57,643 nt of DNA from Minisyncoccota bacterium (GCA_036517195.1 DATDXU010000018.1:1-57643), one strand, 5' to 3'; counted from the first letter of the stretch, positions 1 to 40,720 are shown. Numbers and translations are program-made. The notes: generated from the letters alone by a model not told the origin.

Positions 1-105
1 TTGGGTGAGGATGGGAATCGAAAGACGGAGCGCGACGGCGCGAGTCGGGGTCGCGTGAATTTTCACCAGAAAATTACGCGTGACCGATTCCCCTCATCGC
101 CCGCA
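1..105 (+). repeat. tRNA-3'-end-mimic structured repeat, copy A (may continue left of the window)
   Basis: Positions 5-105 are identical to 142-242. It starts GTGAGGATGGGAATCGAAAG and ends GACCGATTCCCCTCATCGCCCGCA; the two ends can pair. It contains an internal hairpin CGCGT(G)AATTTT/AAAATTACGCG. Confidence 0.85.
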
Positions 106-112
106 TCTGCGA

Positions 113-139
113 AAAGAGTGCCTTTACGACACTCTTTTT
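113..139 (+). terminator. hairpin plus T-run separating repeat copies A and B
   Basis: AAAGAGTG (113-120) pairs with CACTCTTT (130-137) and is followed by TT. Confidence 0.4.
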
Positions 140-242
140 GCGTGAGGATGGGAATCGAAAGACGGAGCGCGACGGCGCGAGTCGGGGTCGCGTGAATTTT
201 CACCAGAAAATTACGCGTGACCGATTCCCCTCATCGCCCGCA
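138..242 (+). repeat. tRNA-3'-end-mimic structured repeat, copy B
   Basis: Identical to copy A, with a 137-bp period. Confidence 0.85.
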
Positions 243-249
243 GTAATAA

Positions 250-277
250 ATAAAAAACAGACCCACATGGTGGGTCC
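250..277 (-). terminator. rho-independent terminator of the small membrane ORF
   Basis: Stem GACCCAC/GTGGGTC (260-276). The A-run at 252-257 becomes a T-run on the minus strand, just downstream of the stop at 302. Confidence 0.55.
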
Positions 278-301
278 GTTGCGAGAGGTGCGATACGTTA
301 A

Positions 302-517
302 CTATTCGTGGAAGCTTCTTCCTGCCCACGTGAGTCGTGGTCCGTTTATAATCGTTGGCAATGCGCGTTGTTTGATTGCCACATACACGGTGTATGCCAT
401 TGATGGCACACACAGAATTATCACAATGCCGATGACTACGGCTATTTGATGTAGTCCCAAGACCCACAGTGCGAGTGGCGCCGCGATCATTACAGCCATA
501 AGAGCGAATGCGAGCAT
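302..517 (-). CDS. small hydrophobic membrane protein (71 aa)
   Basis: The ORF has two hydrophobic stretches (MLAFALMAVMIAAPLALWVLGL..VVIGIVIILCV) and a terminator downstream. Confidence 0.45.
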   Translation of the reverse strand: MLAFALMAVMIAAPLALWVLGLHQIAVVIGIVIILCVPSMAYTVYVAIKQRALPTIINGPRLTWAGRSFHE

Positions 518-585
518 TGGCGTTTTCCTTTTTTCATTTACCCATCACTACTGTATGCTACAAACATCGACTCGACAATGTCACT

Positions 586-1524
586 ATGAAAAAACCAATT
601 ATCGTAACTGGCGCGTGCGGGTTTATCGGATACAACATTGCGAAGTTTTTATCTGATGCGGGGCATGAGCTCATACTCGTTGATCGAAATAAGCGGGACG
701 ATATGGTACAGACACCGCACAATGCGAAGTACATAGATGCGGAAGAATTGCTGTCGGGTGAGCAGGTGAAGAACTCTTCTGTGGTGGTGCATATGGGGGC
801 GTCGGTTAACACGGGAGACACTGACCGCGCGGCGGTTATGAGCAACAATTTTGAATACAGCAAGCAACTCTTTGACATGTGCGCGAGCGCGGGCACTCGC
901 TTGATATATGCATCTTCCGCGGCGACCTATGGCGATGGTTCGCGCGGGTTTGATGATACGCGGCGCGACCTGAAGCCGCAAAATTACTATGCCGAGTCGA
1001 AACATCTTTTTGACGAATATGTGCGTGACGCCTCAAAAAAACCTCCGCAATCGGTGGGGCTCAAGTTTTTTAACGTGTATGGACCGCACGAATCTCACAA
1101 GGGGCGTATGGCATCCTCCGTGTTTTTTGCATATGAACAAGCGAAAAAAAGTGGGGTTATCACCTTGTTTCGTTCGCACAATCCACACTACGAGAACGGC
1201 GAACAGGCGCGAGATTTTGTGTATGTGGCGGACGTTGTTAGCGTCGTCAATTTTTTCATAGAACATGGGAATCTTTCGGGGATTTTCAATGTGGGAACAG
1301 GGACGGCGCGCACATTCAAAGACCTTGCGCTCTCTGTGTTCTCCGCTCTCGGGAAGGAACCGAAGATTGAATTTATTGATACGCCGGAGCAATTTCGCGC
1401 GCAGTATCAGTACTTTACTCAAGCGAATATTGAGCGATTGCGCGATGCGGGGTACTCTCTGCCGTTCAGGACGATAGAAGACGGCGTACGGGAATACGTA
1501 CAGTATCTGGAAAAGAATATCTAA
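586..1524 (+). CDS. hldD: ADP-L-glycero-D-manno-heptose 6-epimerase-like NAD-dependent epimerase
   Basis: Motifs VTGACGFIGYN (Rossmann), YASSAATYG, YAESK, FFNVYGPHESHKGRMASS, RDFVYVADV and QYQYFTQANIERLRDAGY resemble HldD/RfaD. The start is placed at the internal ATG (MKKPIIVTG). Confidence 0.8.
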   Translation: MKKPIIVTGACGFIGYNIAKFLSDAGHELILVDRNKRDDMVQTPHNAKYIDAEELLSGEQVKNSSVVVHMGASVNTGDTDRAAVMSNNFEYSKQLFDMCASAGTRLIYASSAATYGDGSRGFDDTRRDLKPQNYYAESKHLFDEYVRDASKKPPQSVGLKFFNVYGPHESHKGRMASSVFFAYEQAKKSGVITLFRSHNPHYENGEQARDFVYVADVVSVVNFFIEHGNLSGIFNVGTGTARTFKDLALSVFSALGKEPKIEFIDTPEQFRAQYQYFTQANIERLRDAGYSLPFRTIEDGVREYVQYLEKNI

Positions 1525-6191: not shown

Positions 6192-6278
6192 GTGTGTACG
6201 CTCCGCAGAGCAGGTTATTTACTGATAAGTATCTTAACACCTAGTTGTTACTAAGTCAAGGGGTGCACTATTTTCAAC

Positions 6279-6422
6279 GAGAGGCCTGCCTGCCGGCAGG
6301 CGGGGAGTCGGCCAAGAACGAATTTTTTCGCCGTCGCTCCAAAATTCTTCTTGGCCATGCTCGCGCGACCCCGCCTTCTGGCGTGGTACCTCGCGCTCAC
6401 TTTCGACTCCCTCTCCCAGCTA
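6279..6422 (-). repeat. tRNA-3'-end-mimic structured repeat, tRNA-Leu-distal copy
   Basis: It shares an identical block of about 56 nt (GCTCGCGCGACCCCGCCTTCTGGCGTGGTACCTCGCGCTCACTTTCGACTCCCTCT) with 6470-6617. It ends ...CTCTCCCAGC, like the tRNA-Leu acceptor. Confidence 0.85.
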
Positions 6423-6469
6423 CAAAATAATAGTCGCCAGACGCTAACGCCTCTGGCTCTTTTATTTTA

Positions 6470-6617
6470 TGCTGGGAGAGGCCTGCCGGCAGGCAGGCTG
6501 GGAGTCGGCCAAGAGCTCGTTTTATTGCCGTCGCAACAAAACTCCTCTCAGCCCTGCTCGCGCGACCCCGCCTTCTGGCGTGGTACCTCGCGCTCACTTT
6601 CGACTCCCTCTTCAGCA
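6470..6617 (-). repeat. tRNA-3'-end-mimic structured repeat, tRNA-Leu-proximal copy
   Basis: Plus-strand TGCTGGGAGAGG (6470-6481) equals the start of the tRNA-Leu reverse complement (6665-6676). A palindromic insert CCTGCCGGCAGG.. follows, then GGGAGTCGG. The far end, CTTTCGACTCCCTCTTCAGCA, is the inverted partner. Confidence 0.85.
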
Positions 6618-6664
6618 GAAAACAGTAATCGCCGAGAGATTCTCTCTCGGCTCAACTGTTTTTA

Positions 6665-6745
6665 TGCTGGGAGAGGGAGTCGAACCCTCATGAGTTGCCT
6701 CGATCGATTTTGAGTCGATTGCGTCTGCCATTCCGCCATCCCAGC
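6665..6745 (-). tRNA. tRNA-Leu (anticodon CAA), long variable arm
   Basis: Reverse complement GCTGGGATGGCGGAATGGCAGACGCAATCGACTCAAAATCGATCGAGGCAACTCATGAGGGTTCGACTCCCTCTCCCAGCA. It folds as a cloverleaf with anticodon loop CTCAAAA and T-loop TTCGACT. Confidence 0.9.
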
Positions 6746-6820
6746 GTTTTCTTAGTGTACGGCCATTTGTTGTAAACACAAATTCCCCAGATTCCTTTCT
6801 CTTGGGCGTATCTGGACTGC

Positions 6821-6828
6821 GGTATACT
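6821..6828 (+). promoter_or_regulatory. -10-like box GGTATACT, 6 nt before the parB ATG (leaderless candidate)
   Basis: GGTATACT at 6821-6828 and ATG at 6835. There is no Shine-Dalgarno sequence between them. Confidence 0.45.
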
Positions 6829-6834
6829 GTTTTT

Positions 6835-7812
6835 ATGTCCAGTGGATACTATAACGACTCTATTTTTTGGGTTGAAGTTGAACGCATAAAACCGAATCCG
6901 TTTCAACCGAGGCGCACGTTTGATGAGGCGTCACTCGCATCTTTGTCAGAATCTATTCGTCAGTATGGCATTCTTCAGCCACTTACCGTTACGCGCCATG
7001 AAATTGAGCGCCCGGGCGAAGGTGTGTTTGTTGAATATGAACTTATCGCCGGTGAGAGGCGACTACGAGCGGCAAAAATGGCAGGTATAGCGCAGGTTCC
7101 TGTGGTCATTCGGAGTTCGGAAGATACTGATGCGATGAAACTTGAACTTGCTATCATTGAGAATTTACAACGAGAAGATTTGTCTCCGATTGACAGAGCG
7201 AAGGCATTCAAACAACTGGTGGATGATTTCGGGCTCAAGCATGTGGACATTGGTAAAAAAATAGGTAAGAGCCGTGAGTATGTAAGTAACACCCTGCGCA
7301 TTTTGATGCTTCCAGAAGAGATACAAAATGCCCTTGCGTCGGGCGAAATTACAGAAGGGCATACGCGCCCGCTCCTCATGCTCGCCGAACGCCCCGAAGA
7401 ACAGCGCACTCTGTTCAAAGAAATTATTACGAAGCGACTTACGGTGCGTGATACGGAGCAGGTGGCGCGGCGTGTTGCGACAGAGCGTGTGCGCAAATTT
7501 GATTTAACGCCTGATCTGCTCGCGCTTGAACGGCAGCTTACCGAGACCTTGGGTACGCGTGTGCGCATTGAAAAGAAGGATACGGGCGGGAAGGTTCTTA
7601 TCGACTTTTTCTCACCCGATGATTTGGCACACCTGTGTATGCAACTGGCAATACAAAGTAAAAAACACCAAGTAACACCCGTGCCCGCACCCGCGACTGA
7701 AAAAGCGCCTGATGCCAGTCTGAGAGAGGAGGGAACAGAAGTTCCTTCCGCGCCTCCTCAAGAATCAGCAAACGAAGATGATACGTATTCACTCCGCAAT
7801 TTCAGCGTGTAG
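6835..7812 (+). CDS. parB: chromosome partitioning protein ParB/Spo0J
   Basis: IKPNPFQPRRTFD, GILQPLTV, ELIAGERRLRAAKMAG and an HTH region (IGKSREYVSNTLRIL). Confidence 0.9.
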   Translation: MSSGYYNDSIFWVEVERIKPNPFQPRRTFDEASLASLSESIRQYGILQPLTVTRHEIERPGEGVFVEYELIAGERRLRAAKMAGIAQVPVVIRSSEDTDAMKLELAIIENLQREDLSPIDRAKAFKQLVDDFGLKHVDIGKKIGKSREYVSNTLRILMLPEEIQNALASGEITEGHTRPLLMLAERPEEQRTLFKEIITKRLTVRDTEQVARRVATERVRKFDLTPDLLALERQLTETLGTRVRIEKKDTGGKVLIDFFSPDDLAHLCMQLAIQSKKHQVTPVPAPATEKAPDASLREEGTEVPSAPPQESANEDDTYSLRNFSV

Positions 7813-7820
7813 AGGAATGC

Positions 7821-9362
7821 TCACCGTTGTTTTTCTTTTTGCGCGGTAAGTGCCGCACGAATGTGTTTTTTTGCCATATTTGTTTTTGCCATATCCTGCC
7901 ATTTGCGCGATGGTTTTGCGGATTTTTTCGTGAGTATTTCAACAATGTCGCCGTTCTTGAGTTCTGTATCAAGGGAGGCCATTTTTCCATTTACTCTTGC
8001 TCCAGACATGGAGTTGCCGATGTCGGAGTGAATGGCGTACGCAAAGTCAACCGGAGTTGCCGCAACCGGCAGGTCTATAACATCCCCGCGCGGAGTGAAT
8101 GCGAACACGCGGTGATTAAAAAAATCAGATTTTAGTGTTTGTAGGTATTCTTCTGACGCGGTAGCGTCATCGTGGGCAAGTTCTGTAACCCACTCGGGCA
8201 CCCCATGCGCGCGGACGGAAGAAGATTCTTGTTGGCTTTCGTTAAGTCGGGGGAAAAATTGCCTGATCCAATCTAATCCGACACCTCCGCGGGATCCCTC
8301 TTTGTGCGTCCTTTGTTTTCCTTTGTAGAGGAGGTGGGAGGCAACGCCAAAGAGAGCTTCTTGGTGTTGAGATTCCGTGCGTAATTGAATTTCAAGAGCG
8401 CCCCCATCTCCCGTATACACGGTGGTATGTATGGACTGGTATCCGTTTGGTTTTGGAAACGCGATGTAATCTTTTATTTTTCCTGGAACGGGTCTCCATT
8501 GGGCGTGGATTACACCGAGCGCGGAATAACAATCGGCAATGGCGGGAAATATGATGCGGAGCGCCAGAATGTCATAAATTTGGTCGATGTTCCAGTTTTT
8601 GCGTTCTAATTTTCTGAACAAACTATATACGCCCTTAATGCGTGCCTCAGTGCGGAACGTGCGGATGCCCGATTCCGCCAGTTGGCGTTTTACGTCCCGT
8701 TCTGTTTTCTCAAGACGTTTTTCATTCTCGCGACTGCGTTCTTTCAAAAGTTCTTTGACTTTTTCATACTCTTTCGGGAGCGCGTGGGGAAATGCGGCAT
8801 CCTCAAGGTCATTTTTAAGCACACTCATGCCGAGTCGGTCTGCGATGGGCGCGTAAATTTCAAGTGTTTCTTGCGCTATGCGCGTGCGCTTCACTGCGTC
8901 CGGCACATGTTCAAGAGTTCTCGCGTTGTGCAGGCGATCCATGAGTTTTATGATGAGGATGCGAATATCTTTTGCTGTCGCCGCAAATAACTTTCGAAGA
9001 GACTCTGTATGTCTTTCTAGTCCTTGGTAACGGAGTTTTCCAAGTTTTGTCACTCCATCAACGAGCTCTAGTACGCCGATTCCAAACTGTTCTTGTACAG
9101 CTTCTCCGCTTATCTTTGCGTCTTCTACCGTGTCGTGAAGGAGTCCCGCGGCAACCGCGTCCGCGTCTACCCCTATGTCTGCCAGCAAGTATCCGACTTC
9201 TGCCGGATGTATGAAATAGGGTTCACCAGAAAATCGCGTTTGTCCTTGGTGTGCTTTTTTGGAAAATTCGTATGCTCGTGTCACGAGAGAAATGTCTCGC
9301 TCCTCCTTGCTGTGAAGGACATTGAGAATGTCAGAGAGGGGACGAATACTTGCGTTTTGCAT
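7821..9362 (-). CDS. relA: (p)ppGpp synthetase/hydrolase, RelA/SpoT homologue, short form ending after the TGS domain
   Basis: HD domain (HPAEV..LHDTVED), synthetase region (YIAFPKPNGYQSIHT) and TGS (VFAFTPRGDVIDLPVAATPVDFAYAIHSDIG). No ACT/RRM tail. Confidence 0.9.
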   Translation of the reverse strand: MQNASIRPLSDILNVLHSKEERDISLVTRAYEFSKKAHQGQTRFSGEPYFIHPAEVGYLLADIGVDADAVAAGLLHDTVEDAKISGEAVQEQFGIGVLELVDGVTKLGKLRYQGLERHTESLRKLFAATAKDIRILIIKLMDRLHNARTLEHVPDAVKRTRIAQETLEIYAPIADRLGMSVLKNDLEDAAFPHALPKEYEKVKELLKERSRENEKRLEKTERDVKRQLAESGIRTFRTEARIKGVYSLFRKLERKNWNIDQIYDILALRIIFPAIADCYSALGVIHAQWRPVPGKIKDYIAFPKPNGYQSIHTTVYTGDGGALEIQLRTESQHQEALFGVASHLLYKGKQRTHKEGSRGGVGLDWIRQFFPRLNESQQESSSVRAHGVPEWVTELAHDDATASEEYLQTLKSDFFNHRVFAFTPRGDVIDLPVAATPVDFAYAIHSDIGNSMSGARVNGKMASLDTELKNGDIVEILTKKSAKPSRKWQDMAKTNMAKKHIRAALTAQKEKQR

Positions 9363-9370
9363 ATGAAATC

Positions 9371-9380
9371 AGTATACCCC
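9371..9380 (-). promoter_or_regulatory. -10-like box GGGGTATACT, 8 nt before the relA ATG
   Basis: The reverse complement of 9371-9380 is GGGGTATACT, the same decamer as upstream of dnaX. Confidence 0.45.
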
Positions 9381-9463
9381 CACACTAATTCGATTTGCTA
9401 ATGGATTGCCGCGGTATATAGTGTAACCGGTTTGTTTGTGTCACAAAAAGGAGTACCCCGGAC

Positions 9464-9601
9464 ATGGGTTCGGTTTTCTTTGTGATTGGTTTACTTATTG
9501 CTGCTTACTTGGGAATACTTGCGGCGCCAAAGGGAAAGGGTTTGTTTGGTGCCGTCGTGCTTATGATGGTGTGGTGGATGATCTTCACGATTATTGCTTG
9601 A
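9464..9601 (+). CDS. small membrane protein (45 aa; below the ORF-track cutoff)
   Basis: AAAGGAG lies about 11 nt before the ATG at 9464. MGSVFFVIGLLIAAYLGILAAPKGKGLFGAVVLMMVWWMIFTIIA gives two hydrophobic helices. A terminator follows. Confidence 0.5.
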   Translation: MGSVFFVIGLLIAAYLGILAAPKGKGLFGAVVLMMVWWMIFTIIA

Positions 9602-9625
9602 CGCCCCCCGCGTCAAAAATTTGAA

Positions 9626-9664
9626 AGACCAGAGCTATTCTATGCTTCCTGGTCTTTTCTTTTG
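9626..9664 (+). terminator. rho-independent terminator
   Basis: AGACCAG (9626-9632) pairs with CTGGTCT (9649-9655), followed by TTTTCTTTT. Confidence 0.6.
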
Positions 9665-9702
9665 TGCGGATTATGATTTGGACACGTTTTGTTTGAACAG
9701 CG

Positions 9703-9809
9703 TTCGGGAATGGTTTTCGGTCACGGATAATTTCCTCGCCGTCGCTCGGAAGTTTCCGCGACCCCGGCTCGTGGCTCGTCCTACTGGACTCGCATCGCTC
9801 CGCCCGACC
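9703..9809 (-). repeat. degenerate orphan copy of the structured repeat family (no adjacent tRNA)
   Basis: Plus-strand GGGAATGGTTTTCGGTCACGGATAATTTCC...GCCGTCGC...CCGCGACCCCGGCTCG parallels the reverse complement of copy A (GGGGAATCGGTCACGCGTAATTTTC...CACGCGACCCCGACTCG). Confidence 0.6.
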
Positions 9810-9844
9810 AAAACGAGGGCACATGCAACGTAGGTTGCATGTTT

Positions 9845-12037
9845 CTATTTTGATTTCGTAAGTTTGTGAGGGTTATGCATCGAGCACTGTTTGTTGCTAC
9901 AACGCTCCGGTATCGTTTTGGTCCCTTGCATCATGAGAGAACCACATTCCTTGCAGAGTGCCCCCGTTGGGCGCGCCTTGATGGCGTTTTTACATGTAGG
10001 ATAATTTGAACACGAAAAGAACGGACCGAAACGCCCGCGTCGTTCCACCATCTCACCGCCTTTGCAGGTTGGGCACGCAACTCCGGTTTTAGATTTTGCT
10101 TCTTCGGCTGGGTCTTTTTTTACAAATTTACATTTTGGATATTTTGAACAGGCGATGAATTGCCCGAAGCGCCCCTCGCGTTGTATCAGTTTTCCATTCC
10201 CGTCTTTACACTCTGGGCACGCTTCGCCGATGTCTTTTGGTGGAGCGAGTTCTGTGCCGTCTTCCTTGCGCGCTCCGAGACAATCCGGAAAACGTTTGCA
10301 ACTCATAAATCTTCCGTTTCGAGAGAGTTTGTATACCATTGAGCCCTCGCATACAGGACACGGAAATTCTTTGGGGGCGTCTCCCATGTTTGTCAGCTTT
10401 TCTATTTTTGCCTTACTTTTCACCGCTTTGGTGAACGGTGTATAAAAATTCTTGAGGGTTTTTTCGTACTCACGCGTGCCTTCCGCTATTTCATCAAGAC
10501 CATTTTCCATTTCTGCCGTGAAGGTGTCGCTTATGTAGTCTGCAAAGTGTTGTTCCAGGAATGTTGAAACAACGTCGCCTGTGTAGGTGGGTATGAGCGT
10601 CCGTCCCTGCTTATCCGCGTACCCCCTGTCTTCCAGTGTTTTTATTATAGAGGCGTAGGTAGAAGGTCTTCCGATTCCTCGTTTTTCTAATTCTTTAATA
10701 AGTCCCGCTTCGCTGTATCTGGCGGGTGGTTGTGTTTCTTTGCCTTCAGAGTGTGCCTCTAGCAACCGTAACGGATCTGTATCAGCGACTTTGGGTAGTT
10801 CTACATCTTCGCCACGAGCGTCAGGATCAGCGGAGAGCCAGCCGTCGAAGAGTACACGAGAGCCTGTTATCACAAAATCGGGTATTGTGTCTTTGGGCGA
10901 CGTAACGCGCGCGCGCGCGGTAATTTTTGTCCGTAAAATTTTTGCTTCAGTCATTTGTGAAGAAAGGGCGCGCGCGCGGATGAGTGTATACAACTCTTTC
11001 TGTTCGCCGACAGCGCCGACGCTTTTCTTGTGCGCGTCAGTCGGGCGGATTGCTTCGTGCGCCTCTTGTGCCGATTTGCTCTTGGTTTTGTAGGTGCGAG
11101 CTTGGATGTATTTCTGTCCGAATTCTTTCTCGATTACGGATACCAATTGTGTCTGTGCTTCTAAGGCGAGGTTGGTGCTATCGGTACGCATGTAGGTGAT
11201 GTGTCCGGCTTCATACAGCTTTTGCGCAATGCGCATGGTGCGCGACGGGGAAAATCCCAATCTGGTTGATGCTGTTTGCTGTAGGGTGGATGTGGTGAAT
11301 GGCGCGCGCGGAAGACGGGCTGTTTCCGATTCTTCAACGGAAACAACATTCCACACTCCCGCTCGTGCCACCTCGAGAATGCGATGTGCTTCCATTTCTG
11401 TTTTCGGCTCTTCTGTGCAGGTACCAACAAATGTTTGTTTCTTCTCTGTTTCAAAATCGGCGGTGAGAACCCAAAATTTTTCAGGTATAAAAGCGCGAAT
11501 TTCGCGCTCGCGTTCCATGAGGATGCGGAGAGCGGGAGATTGTACCCGCCCCGCGGATAATCCATACCGTACCTTTTTCCAGATTAATCCAGAGAGGTCG
11601 TACCCGAACAGGCGGTCAAGTACGCGCCGTGCCTCTTGTGCGCGCCGCAAATGTTCATCTATTGTACGCGGGTGGGCGAGCGCTTCTTGGACAGCGCGCT
11701 CCGTAATTTCGTGGAACACAATGCGTTTTGGATGTTTCAACCCCATCGTTTCGGCTATATGCCACGCAATGGCTTCTCCTTCTCGGTCGGGGTCGGTCGC
11801 GAGTATCACTTCGGAAGCGGTTTTGGCGACTTCTGTAAGTTCGTCAATGACATGTTGTTTTTCTTTCACTACCTGGTAGTGGGGTATGAATCCACCCTCA
11901 ATGTCGACGGCGTCTTTATTGCTTTTTGGCAAATCACGAATGTGCCCGACTGACGCGCGTACAACAAAATCTTTGCCAAGATATTTTTCAATCGTCTTGG
12001 CTTTTGCGGGTGACTCTACTATGACAAGTTTCGTCAT
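9845..12037 (-). CDS. topA: DNA topoisomerase I with C-terminal zinc ribbons
   Basis: The Toprim start LVIVESPAKAKTIEKYLG, GHIRDLP, ITYMRTDS, and multiple CxxC...CxxC fingers at the C-terminus. Confidence 0.95.
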   Translation of the reverse strand: MTKLVIVESPAKAKTIEKYLGKDFVVRASVGHIRDLPKSNKDAVDIEGGFIPHYQVVKEKQHVIDELTEVAKTASEVILATDPDREGEAIAWHIAETMGLKHPKRIVFHEITERAVQEALAHPRTIDEHLRRAQEARRVLDRLFGYDLSGLIWKKVRYGLSAGRVQSPALRILMEREREIRAFIPEKFWVLTADFETEKKQTFVGTCTEEPKTEMEAHRILEVARAGVWNVVSVEESETARLPRAPFTTSTLQQTASTRLGFSPSRTMRIAQKLYEAGHITYMRTDSTNLALEAQTQLVSVIEKEFGQKYIQARTYKTKSKSAQEAHEAIRPTDAHKKSVGAVGEQKELYTLIRARALSSQMTEAKILRTKITARARVTSPKDTIPDFVITGSRVLFDGWLSADPDARGEDVELPKVADTDPLRLLEAHSEGKETQPPARYSEAGLIKELEKRGIGRPSTYASIIKTLEDRGYADKQGRTLIPTYTGDVVSTFLEQHFADYISDTFTAEMENGLDEIAEGTREYEKTLKNFYTPFTKAVKSKAKIEKLTNMGDAPKEFPCPVCEGSMVYKLSRNGRFMSCKRFPDCLGARKEDGTELAPPKDIGEACPECKDGNGKLIQREGRFGQFIACSKYPKCKFVKKDPAEEAKSKTGVACPTCKGGEMVERRGRFGPFFSCSNYPTCKNAIKARPTGALCKECGSLMMQGTKTIPERCSNKQCSMHNPHKLTKSK

Positions 12038-18199: not shown

Positions 18200-18271
18200 G
18201 ATAACCCATGTGGTATGTACGCTAGAAATATACACACCACTGGTCTGTTGATGCGTGATTTTTCCGTACTT

Positions 18272-18305
18272 AGTACTGTCTAATTCGCGCGAATTAGACA
18301 GTACT
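18272..18305. repeat. perfect 34-bp palindrome with core CTAATTCGCGCGAATTAG
   Basis: AGTACTGTCTAATTCGC|GCGAATTAGACAGTACT. It lies between the convergent dnaX and ArsR genes. No T-run follows on either strand. Confidence 0.9.
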
Positions 18306-18338: not shown

Positions 18339-18623
18339 TCACGCCGTTTTCAGCGTGGCGATGAGTATCGGGTGTCTCTGTTTTGGTAAAGAGTATTGTA
18401 CTGTTGTGCTCGTTTGTTTACTTTCAACAACGTTTGCGTGTGCAAGTATGCGCAGATGTTTTGAGGTTGATGTAAAAGAAAGTTGTATTTTTTCTGCAAC
18501 AGTTCCTACGGGTAATGAACCCTCTTTATGTAAAAGTTGCACGATGAGTAATCGGCGATTATTTCCAAGCGCTCGTAATATTCGCTCGGTCTCTGTTGTT
18601 CTTTTTTTGTCTCCAAATAACAT
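18339..18623 (-). CDS. ArsR/SmtB-family HTH transcriptional regulator
   Basis: ILRALGNNRRLLIVQLLHKEGSLPVGTVAEKIQLSFTSTSKHLRILAHANVV shows the typical ArsR winged helix. Confidence 0.8.
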   Translation of the reverse strand: MLFGDKKRTTETERILRALGNNRRLLIVQLLHKEGSLPVGTVAEKIQLSFTSTSKHLRILAHANVVESKQTSTTVQYSLPKQRHPILIATLKTA

Positions 18624-18638
18624 TGTGTTTAGTATTGT

Positions 18639-18656
18639 CTAATTCGCGCGAATTAG
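18639..18656. promoter_or_regulatory. candidate ArsR operator (core palindrome CTAATTCGCGCGAATTAG)
   Basis: An 18-bp perfect palindrome 16 nt upstream of the ArsR start codon, in the divergent region shared with tRNA-Gln. Confidence 0.45.
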
Positions 18657-18679
18657 CAAATGGTGGGGCGCGAGCTGTG

Positions 18680-29982: not shown

Positions 29983-30132
29983 TGACCCTACGGGGAATCG
30001 GCGCAGCTCACTAAGATTTCTGTTCGTGCTTCGCGCTCCATAAATCTAAGTGGCTCCTGCCCTGGCTCGGCGTTCCCACTCGCTTCGCTCACGGGAGCCC
30101 TGCGCCTCCGCCTTTCGATTTCCCGTAAGATC
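29983..30132 (-). repeat. tRNA-3'-end-mimic structured repeat downstream of tRNA-Glu
   Basis: 29983-30000 (TGACCCTACGGGGAATCG) is identical to 30181-30198, the 3' end of tRNA-Glu. The other end, TTCGATTTCCCGTAAGATC, is its imperfect inverted copy. The interior is GC-rich and self-complementary. Confidence 0.85.
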
Positions 30133-30180: not shown

Positions 30181-30252
30181 TGACCCTACGGGGAATCGAA
30201 CCCCGCTTTCGACCTTGAGAAGGTCGCGTCCTAGCCGATAGACGATAGGGCC
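30181..30252 (-). tRNA. tRNA-Glu (anticodon CTC)
   Basis: Reverse complement GGCCCTATCGTCTATCGGCTAGGACGCGACCTTCTCAAGGTCGAAAGCGGGGTTCGATTCCCCGTAGGGTCA. Anticodon loop TTCTCAA. Confidence 0.9.
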
Positions 30253-40663: not shown

Positions 40664-40684
40664 TTTGCGCCGCACATCGTGCGA

Positions 40685-40720
40685 CCTTATTTTCTAATTC
40701 GCGCGAATTAGAAAATAAGG
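40685..40720. repeat. perfect 36-bp palindrome with core CTAATTCGCGCGAATTAG
   Basis: CCTTATTTTCTAATTCGC|GCGAATTAGAAAATAAGG, between convergent genes. No T-run follows. Confidence 0.9.

Follow-up and report, generated by a model that had tools for sequence, protein, structure and literature searches.

Tandem units at a tRNA-Trp locus of a Minisyncoccota contig belong to an apparently undescribed, widespread folded element of Paceibacteria

The stretch of DNA analysed here (57,643 nt from a Minisyncoccota bacterium; hereafter the window) opens with two GC-rich units in tandem. A repeat search aligned positions 1-105 with 138-242 as a direct repeat of 99% identity and a 137-nt period, which is beyond what chance can produce, and the two copies differ at one base (G at position 4, C at 141). 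This agreed with an earlier note made from the sequence alone, which had pointed out identical tandem units of that period; the unit start GGTGAGGATGGGAATCGAAAG, the unit end CGATTCCCCTCATCGCCCGCA, the GC hairpin and the AT-tipped hairpin that it described are all present in the sequence. Copy 1 (plus strand) comprises a 5' arm at 3-22, an imperfect reverse complement of tRNA-Trp positions 54-73 in which AATCGAA (16-22) is the reverse complement of the T-loop TTCGATT; a hairpin P2 at 24-46, with a 3-bp base, a GGA/GA internal loop, a GCGC/GCGC stem and a GACG loop; a hairpin P3 at 49-85, whose 16-bp stem has a bulged A and a conserved G-U pair and is capped by the 4-nt loop ACCA (consensus AGCA); and a 3' arm at 85-105, which directly repeats tRNA-Trp C56-G73 and CA but for one additional C. 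Spacer S1 follows on the plus strand (106-141; a hairpin at 113-137, then a T-run), and copy 2 occupies 142-242 of the same strand (5' arm 140-159, P2 161-183, P3 186-222, 3' arm 222-242). The fold of the unit reached -55.7 kcal/mol on the plus strand (z = -5.8 against shuffles) and -42.6 on the minus strand. Both copies were matched at 99 bits (E ~1e-31) by the covariance model described below, at 8-93 and 145-230 of the plus strand.

Downstream of copy 2 and outside the unit lies an intrinsic terminator (256-280, minus strand) of a convergent 71-aa membrane ORF (302-517, minus strand), which was called in eight contigs. The earlier note had given each unit a following stem-loop of its own and had spoken of divergent spacers, a description that did not hold up: the stem-loop at 113-137 belongs to the spacer between tRNA-Trp and the unit in eight related contigs, where S1 is the tRNA-Trp trailer; the second stem-loop is the terminator just described; and the window has a single spacer, the sequence after copy 2 being the downstream flank. 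Spurious ORFs run over the GC-rich units (window 138-449, plus strand; 9364-9864 in the related contig L001), and a 166-aa 'gene' without a Pfam match is listed at the unit in L001-L006.

Same-species contigs from independent assemblies were fetched by means of the epimerase gene (587-1524) and the 71-aa ORF. Eight of these (L001-L006, L058, L059) have the order rpmG, tRNA-Trp(CCA), S1, one unit and the shared downstream flank. The parental tRNA that had been predicted immediately left of the window was thereby found: tRNA-Trp(CCA), at 9448-9519 of L001, has a 3' end reading ...TTCGATTCCCTCATCGCCCG, or in a longer view ...GGGGGTTCGATTCCCTCATCGCCCG. The 3' arm of the Trp unit reads CGATTCCCCTCATCGCCCG-CA, and comparison with tRNA-Trp bore out the proposal that the unit's 3' end is a copied T-loop remnant, T-stem and acceptor strand. 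Window positions 85-700 are collinear with the related contigs, copy 2 being collinear with the single unit of L001-L006, and positions 1-84 replace the tRNA body. The product of the adjoining rpmG (an L33 protein) was closest to Candidatus Kaiserbacteria. About 700 nt left of the point where the window starts, L001 contains a small GIY-YIG nuclease-like ORF (8480-8770) within a 20-nt inverted repeat, ccaccacaccttttgtcttat / ataagacaaaaggtgtggtgg, recognised by eye.

Two assemblies show the tandem state, the window and L060, a short contig that comes from another sample; the eight same-species assemblies have tRNA-Trp with one unit. Within the species the copy number is one or two. The suggestion of a recent duplication is supported. 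An artefact of assembly at the end of a contig would also give such a tandem, just as neutral, decaying duplications without function would give repeated units, and it is in line with this that the window begins 4 nt before copy 1, that the eight other assemblies have a single unit, and that units are often located at contig ends. We nevertheless consider this explanation extremely improbable. The unit-to-S1 and tRNA-to-S1 junctions have only 12 nt in common, which is too short for a k-mer misjoin, and L060 contains the unit 3' end, S1 and a unit with SNPs of its own, so that the tandem state is not private to one assembly; neutral decay is opposed by the core covariation and orthologous conservation presented below. 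As to what precedes copy 1, the TTGGG at the window start matches the tRNA 5' flank at 5/5 positions and the spacer end TTGCG at 4/5, and a metagenome scan with the exact 5' end of the Trp unit, run to read left of copy 1, gave 0 matches. The most economical reading is that the strain of the window has the order tRNA-S1-unit-S1-unit, and such a tandem could have arisen if the tRNA 3' end and the copy of it in the unit had undergone unequal exchange. A 568-bp contig of the same species (L061) has a different tRNA (T-loop TTCAAGT) whose hairpin and 5' arm are fused to the core, 3' arm and downstream gene of the Trp unit; this chimeric junction suggests recombination through the cores, or misassembly through them.

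Using a covariance model built from 42 standard units, we found six family members in the window. Besides copies 1 and 2, two members on the minus strand adjoin tRNA-Leu(CAA) (6665-6745, minus strand). The proximal one (6470-6615, model match 6499-6613, 34 bits) belongs to an expanded subtype and has a 3' arm that copies the tRNA-Leu 3' end; the distal one (6279-6424, model match 6302-6416, 41 bits) is 88% identical to it. A tRNA-free member lies downstream of topA (9711-9820, minus strand, 36 bits), and a divergent member lies downstream of tRNA-Glu(CTC) (29984-30130, model match 30039-30128, minus strand), with a weak match of 13 bits (E = 0.06). In the latter case the sequence C56-A73 of tRNA-Glu (30181-30252, minus strand) is that of the unit's 3' arm. 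The Leu and Glu loci are built like the Trp locus, as had been claimed, their 3' arms being copies of tRNA ends, and both loci are identical among assemblies of the window species. ARAGORN and the Rfam tRNA model (RF00005) called only tRNAs Leu, Gln and Glu in the window, and no unit was called a tRNA. A perfect palindrome, CTAATTCGCGCGAATTAG, occurs three times in the window (18270-18305, 18629-18661 and 40684-40717); the first two flank a 94-aa ORF with an ArsR/MarR-type HTH (18339-18623, minus strand) just upstream of tRNA-Gln, and the palindromes are probably operator sites.

Beyond the window, a scan of species-representative genomes with a pattern derived from the Trp and Leu units returned 51 loci, 48 of them in Patescibacteria/Paceibacterota MAGs, and a metagenome scan with a core-only pattern returned at least 119. 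Both collections together hold at least ~170 loci, almost all in Paceibacteria MAGs, in agreement with the further copies that the proposal of the earlier note required. Viral contigs scanned with the core gave 0 matches. An Rfam scan, which the earlier note had also suggested, matched the units to no family at either the gathering or a permissive threshold. With Rfam 15, window positions 1-600 gave only weak matches (E ~3) to a viral microRNA precursor, a snoRNA and the osmY sRNA, far below gathering, and positions 6200-9900 gave noise at the level of miRNA models over the units, with tRNA-Leu as the sole real match. Literature searches retrieved no description of this family. In view of a covarying fold that has neither an Rfam match nor a published description, we regard the family as a new RNA (or single-strand DNA) motif, and the two tandem units as genuine copies of a folded non-coding element that is widespread in Paceibacteria and apparently undescribed.

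The unit folds as a three-way junction with the order P1 (the arms), J1/2 (GAAA), P2, J2/3 (GG) and P3. P2 has a 3-bp base, the GGA/GA internal loop, a GCGC stem and a GACG loop, into which the expanded subtypes insert a hairpin of 22-25 nt; P3 has 16 bp with the bulged A, the conserved G-U pair and an AGCA loop. Among the 42 standard units, 93% of cells were paired and the covariation score was 0.41, as compared with 0.14 after shuffling; sliding the partner columns on this alignment collapsed the pairing. In a larger alignment of 75 units, changes on both sides were found in 29 of 31 pairs, a number that leans towards the model since the alignment had been fitted to it. RNAalifold independently predicted P2 and P3, and the P1 closing helix was absent from its prediction. 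The internal fold proposed in the earlier note is thus supported by covariation in both alignments and by the consensus fold, and this support applies to the core hairpins P2 and P3. As an example, the P2 pair at alignment columns 18:39 is CG in 32 units, AU in 9 and UA in 1.

The sequence of P2 is nearly invariant among standard units, about half of it (GAGCGCGA) having been fixed by the search pattern. Invariance of the core was thus imposed in part by the search patterns, and this does not apply to A59, A62, the bulged A70 and the covarying pairs. The GGA opposite GA in P2 could form tandem G-A pairs with a 1-nt bulge; in a kink-turn, two helices are joined by a 3-nt bulge and, after it, tandem sheared G-A pairs. 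With respect to the strand, P3 contained 71 G-U and 3 A-C pairs, from which it follows that the fold operates on the tRNA-sense strand; P1 contained 20 G-U pairs, 26 A-C pairs and 43 other mismatches, and its lack of a strand-specific G-U bias indicates that the outer P1 is not under such selection.

Several functional assignments for this fold were considered and dropped. A unit that ends at its own terminator was rejected, as a unit is followed by one in only 6 of 42 cases. A bistable switch, in which GCGCGAC would pair alternately with GUCGCG, was abandoned because this pairing is not kept in the Leu-type and topA-type expanded subtypes. Assignment of the P2 loop to a Guanidine-II-like ACGR hairpin had no support from Rfam, and a riboswitch-like 5' regulatory element was rejected because the downstream genes are often convergent (as at the Trp, Glu and topA units of the window).

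We also considered whether the ends of the unit form an acceptor/T minihelix, as the earlier note had proposed. The unit would then be a tRNA-like small RNA with a helix for RNase P, RNase Z, the CCA-adding enzyme or a synthetase to recognise. For the Trp unit itself the proposal holds: an 18-bp helix with two mismatches joins its ends, with the tRNA's own acceptor/T strand plus CA as its 3' strand, and a comparable picture is seen in the Leu and Glu units of the window. As a conserved feature, for which a continuous helix of ~12 bp or more would be expected across members, it does not hold: of the 42 standard units, only 6 have a closing helix of 17 bp or more, long enough to include the acceptor part, 21 have one of 9 bp or less, and the median reach is 9.5 bp. 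The consensus fold without a closing helix and the near balance of G-U and A-C pairs in P1 given above weigh in the same direction, as do the frequent decay of arms and the many units whose arms are not tRNA-derived or are missing. We therefore regard tRNA mimicry as a very unlikely property of the family.

Linkage of the units to tRNA genes was common. Of 74 model matches in 346 kb, 50 start no more than 120 nt downstream of a tRNA on the same strand and 5 more are tandem copies, covering 16 amino-acid identities; T-loop-type arms are over-represented in this sample. The core-only pattern gave 111 assessable units among the matches listed, of which 57 were linked to a tRNA and 54 were not. 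The tRNA-linked share of units is accordingly roughly half to two thirds, and since Gly and Phe are additional in the core-only set, at least 18 amino-acid identities are represented overall. Counted from the side of the tRNA genes, 50 of 89 were followed by a unit, in loci that had been chosen for holding one. Many of the tRNA-free units (L087, L094, L119, L139, L141, L144, L147, L152, L173, and L024 at 7090-7125) have a conserved 5' hairpin, GGGUGAGAAGCGAAUACUUGGAGCUUCGCAAGG, which replaces the T-loop-derived arm; a longer composite form with two P2-like modules is present in L087.

In linked units the two arms derive from the local tRNA with different limits. The 5' arm is the reverse complement of that tRNA from T54, comprising the T-loop, the T-stem and sometimes the acceptor strand, and it tracks T-loop variants: a TTCAATT loop is accompanied by AATTGAA (L015), and TTCAAGT by GCTTGAA, with one mismatch (L061). 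The 3' arm corresponds to C56-N73 plus C(C)A. A downstream copy of positions 62-72, and hence a direct repeat of the tRNA 3' segment, was found for 29 of 92 tRNAs. Exact identity began at C56 in 17 of 32 tRNA-end copies and ended 0-2 nt past N73 in most, while 4 of the 32 ran 40-59 nt into the trailer. After N73 the copies read CCA in 8 of 28 cases and CAN in 18, sometimes unlike the neighbouring gene. On the 5' side, the sequence that leads from T54 across the trailer up to the hairpin has its mirror image in the sequence leading from the hairpin to the 5' arm, at 77% identity for the tRNA portion and 70% for the trailer portion. The start at C56 and the stop at C(C)A point to a specific event at the T-loop, be it recombination, template switching or reverse transcription.

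These limits bear on a route through an RNA intermediate, in which a reverse transcriptase would start at the CCA end of a mature tRNA, stall at the modified T54/pseudouridine-55 and switch to the 3' end of a unit RNA, the resulting cDNA returning to the chromosome via the palindromic TTCGA in the T-loop of a tRNA gene. Such a route would account for the sharp left limit at C56 and for a 3' arm that stops at C(C)A in spite of a different gene trailer: the tRNA-Glu gene of the window has AAA where the copy has CAT, and at four further loci (L010, the Cys locus of L015, L048 and L055) the gene has CAA where the copy has CCA. The 5' arm, unlike the 3' arm, continues into a mirrored gene trailer. 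Units also lie inside truncated tRNA copies beside an intact copy, as seen by alignment in L041 (tRNA-Phe 1-39, unit, 42-51), in L182 (tRNA-Ser 1-17, unit, 30-44) and likewise in L175, and by eye in L105 and L171, where the break is in the D-loop. The CCA signal of the copies is weak, however, because the tRNA genes mostly carry these bases themselves: among 97 tRNA genes from the window and the fetched loci, the three bases after the discriminator were CAN in 60 and CCA in 19, which gives CA or CCA in 79 of 97, and in these genomes the 'CA' after N73 is normally encoded by the gene. Moreover, no reverse transcriptase was found near the units in 48 loci, and the route needs several unobserved steps, so that we judge it to be quite unlikely.

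Comparison of orthologous sites indicated that the units are gained or lost together with their hairpins. At the rpmG-tRNA-Trp-miaA locus, the tRNA abuts miaA without hairpin or unit in L069-71; a hairpin and an expanded unit with arms that are not T-loop-derived are present in L073; S1, a divergent unit and a second S1, with a 60-nt direct repeat, are present in L072; and S1 with one or two standard units is present in the window species. From these empty and occupied sites we conclude that hairpin and unit come and go as a block. A different picture was obtained for the tRNA-free unit downstream of topA, which is orthologous in a distant species (L007, 7687-7796) and has compensatory changes in both P1 and the P2 insert. 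Its persistence in two species with such changes points to selection on the fold that is independent of the tRNA, and orthologous conservation together with the core covariation rules out neutral decay of the core.

We clustered the ORFs within ~8 kb around 48 loci and found no recurrent integrase, transposase, recombinase or reverse transcriptase; only housekeeping synteny recurred, for example MiaA and ParB. Pfam searches of ORFs near the tRNAs of the window detected no mobile-element genes, and neither the ORF clustering in the 48 loci nor the Pfam searches of neighbouring ORFs identified a partner protein. LAGLIDADG-type homing-endonuclease ORFs occur among tRNA genes in L073 (1-635, by Pfam) and in L015 (~900-1480, by eye).

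Other short 'cargo' types were seen by eye to precede a C56-starting tRNA copy, namely a TGTAA hairpin, an AT-rich core and a 38-nt repeat. In the flanks of L011, L036 (tRNA-Gly), L045, L048 and L050, a sequence close to GGTGTACTG is followed by the TGTAA-loop hairpin, directly before such a copy. Small hairpins of the form GYGTAMTCRC, related to the TGTAA-loop type, are inserted in some 3' arms (L008, L010, L017, L024). Downstream of tRNA-Leu(TAG) in L015 (1565-1690), a 38-nt sequence that combines the tRNA's last 12 nt with a 26-nt spacer is repeated three times in tandem, without the three-way-junction core.

The units could also be miniature integrative cassettes, moved by a site-specific recombinase acting in trans with a crossover at T55/C56, so that the tRNA 3' end is restored at every insertion and a direct repeat is left behind; the substrate may be a folded single strand, as for integron attC or the CTX phage attP, in which case the arms would form the recombination hairpin and P2/P3 would be accessory structure. 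This possibility, which we rate as rather doubtful, accommodates a direct repeat that extends exactly from C56 to the tRNA end, with a 2-nt offset against the 5' arm start at T54, and also the tandem arrays, the presence or absence of hairpin and unit as a block, the unrelated 'cargo' types with the same C56 junction (by eye), and a strand-specific wobble and bulged base like those of single-stranded recombination sites. It has to contend with arms that fit at least 18 tRNA types, which makes a fixed attachment site on the element impossible, with cargo-side junction bases that vary, and with a P2 of invariant sequence where attC has a variable terminal structure. Conservation of tRNA-free units at orthologous sites, the lack of a recurrent integrase or transposase within ~8 kb of the 48 loci and the lack of a core match in viral contigs also argue against it.

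The explanation that we favour, and hold to be about evenly poised between right and wrong, is that the unit would be part of a semi-mobile, tRNA-anchored cassette whose components are a hairpin spacer, a 5' arm (reverse complement of the neighbouring tRNA from T54), the P2-P3 core, and a 3' arm of C56-N73 plus C(C)A. It builds on what was observed of family membership, fold, strand bias, tRNA linkage, sharp arm boundaries, block gain and loss, and copy-number polymorphism, and from these we infer transcription, a trans-acting partner and a recombination mechanism. The P2-P3 core would be the functional part. It would fold as a single strand in the tRNA sense, most likely as an RNA produced when transcription of the tRNA gene reads through, and a trans-acting partner would recognise the internal loop and hairpin of P2, which are near-invariant. 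The arms would not be a selected tRNA mimic; they would be by-products of recombination or template switching anchored at the T-loop sequence that tRNA genes and unit have in common. The same process might duplicate the cassette locally and let it come and go at tRNA genes, in which case the tandem of the window would be a recent duplication of spacer plus unit behind tRNA-Trp. Some observations sit less easily with this cassette proposal. Most spacers look like efficient intrinsic terminators, so that read-through into the units could be low, and the G-T wobbles and the bulged base would equally suit a folded single-stranded DNA substrate. In addition, the limits at C56 and C(C)A are sharper than simple template switching predicts, and the trailer duplication to be expected from it was found in only 4 of the 32 copies; these sharp limits keep both T-loop insertion and reverse transcription alive as rival explanations.

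If the family is as it appears, a conserved structured element accompanies many of the tRNA genes of a major lineage of ultra-small bacteria. The units also account for contig breaks in Paceibacteria, for apparent recombinant joins (L061) and for spurious ORF calls such as that at window 138-449. A more speculative extension, to which we give little weight for now, is that CPR bacteria have a tRNA-templated form of mobility, in which a structured RNA or ssDNA module is joined to the last 21 nt (C56 to CCA) of the adjoining tRNA by a reverse transcriptase acting on mature tRNA ends or by a T-loop recombinase, giving arrays of 'T-loop cassettes'. If true, this would be a new kind of system.

Considered against known systems, the family resembles att duplications, REP/MITE repeats, tRNA-adjacent ornate RNAs and folded recombination sites without having the features that define each of them. 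Like the integration sites of islands and prophages in tRNA genes, in particular those of the T-loop sublocation class, the units show a direct repeat of the tRNA 3' end that runs from the T-loop to the gene end or just past it, form tandem arrays, and vary in occupancy among strains and species. They differ from such sites in that the DNA between the repeats is only ~40-180 nt long and has no integrase, that one core stands behind at least 18 tRNA types, that an inverted copy of the tRNA end is present, and that there are conserved tRNA-free members. By the features that mark an att duplication, the direct repeat was there for 29 of 92 tRNAs, and an integrase or recombinase gene in or beside an insert of ~100-200 nt was not. 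With REP/BIME and MITE-like repeats the units have in common that they are multi-copy, structured and intergenic, lie at 3' ends of transcription units, break assemblies and mediate rearrangements. Here the differences are terminal repeats that are copied from the adjoining tRNA and hence not constant, and a core with RNA-style covariation across species; as opposed to REP elements, no association of the units with a RAYT or transposase was seen. Classification as a MITE, which calls for shared terminal inverted repeats and a short target-site duplication, was rejected, given that the arms differ by locus and track the local T-loop (TTCAATT, TTCAAGT).

The likeness to integron attC and the CTX phage attP consists in an imperfect hairpin of inverted arms with a strand-specific wobble and bulged bases, in an outer 3' arm that comes from the target, and in arrays; as distinct from these sites, the core of the units is invariant, no integron integrase or Xer context was seen, and the target would be a tRNA T-loop. 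Dual-strand guide RNAs such as the IS110 bridge RNA and TIGR-Tas offer another parallel, namely a conserved scaffold with one segment identical and one complementary to a DNA target. TIGR-Tas arrays occur in CPR bacteria and have box C (RUGAUGA), box D (CUGA), units of ~36 nt and an adjacent gene for a Nop-domain protein (PMC12045711). A TIGR array or box C/D guide was rejected for the present units, which are ~100 nt long and contain neither UGAUGA nor CUGA; compared with IS110 and TIGR systems, no Nop-domain or IS110 gene was found near the units, and their arms pair with each other. A retron non-coding RNA was dismissed as well, because a closed fold is present but no recurrent reverse transcriptase ORF was found near the units. 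Finally, ROOL and GOLLD are structured non-coding RNAs with covarying folds that often adjoin tRNA genes. The units are like them in their conserved, covarying fold and frequent tRNA adjacency, and differ from them in being far smaller (~90-150 nt), in occurring in multiple copies per genome, and in having a closing helix that comes from the tRNA's own sequence.
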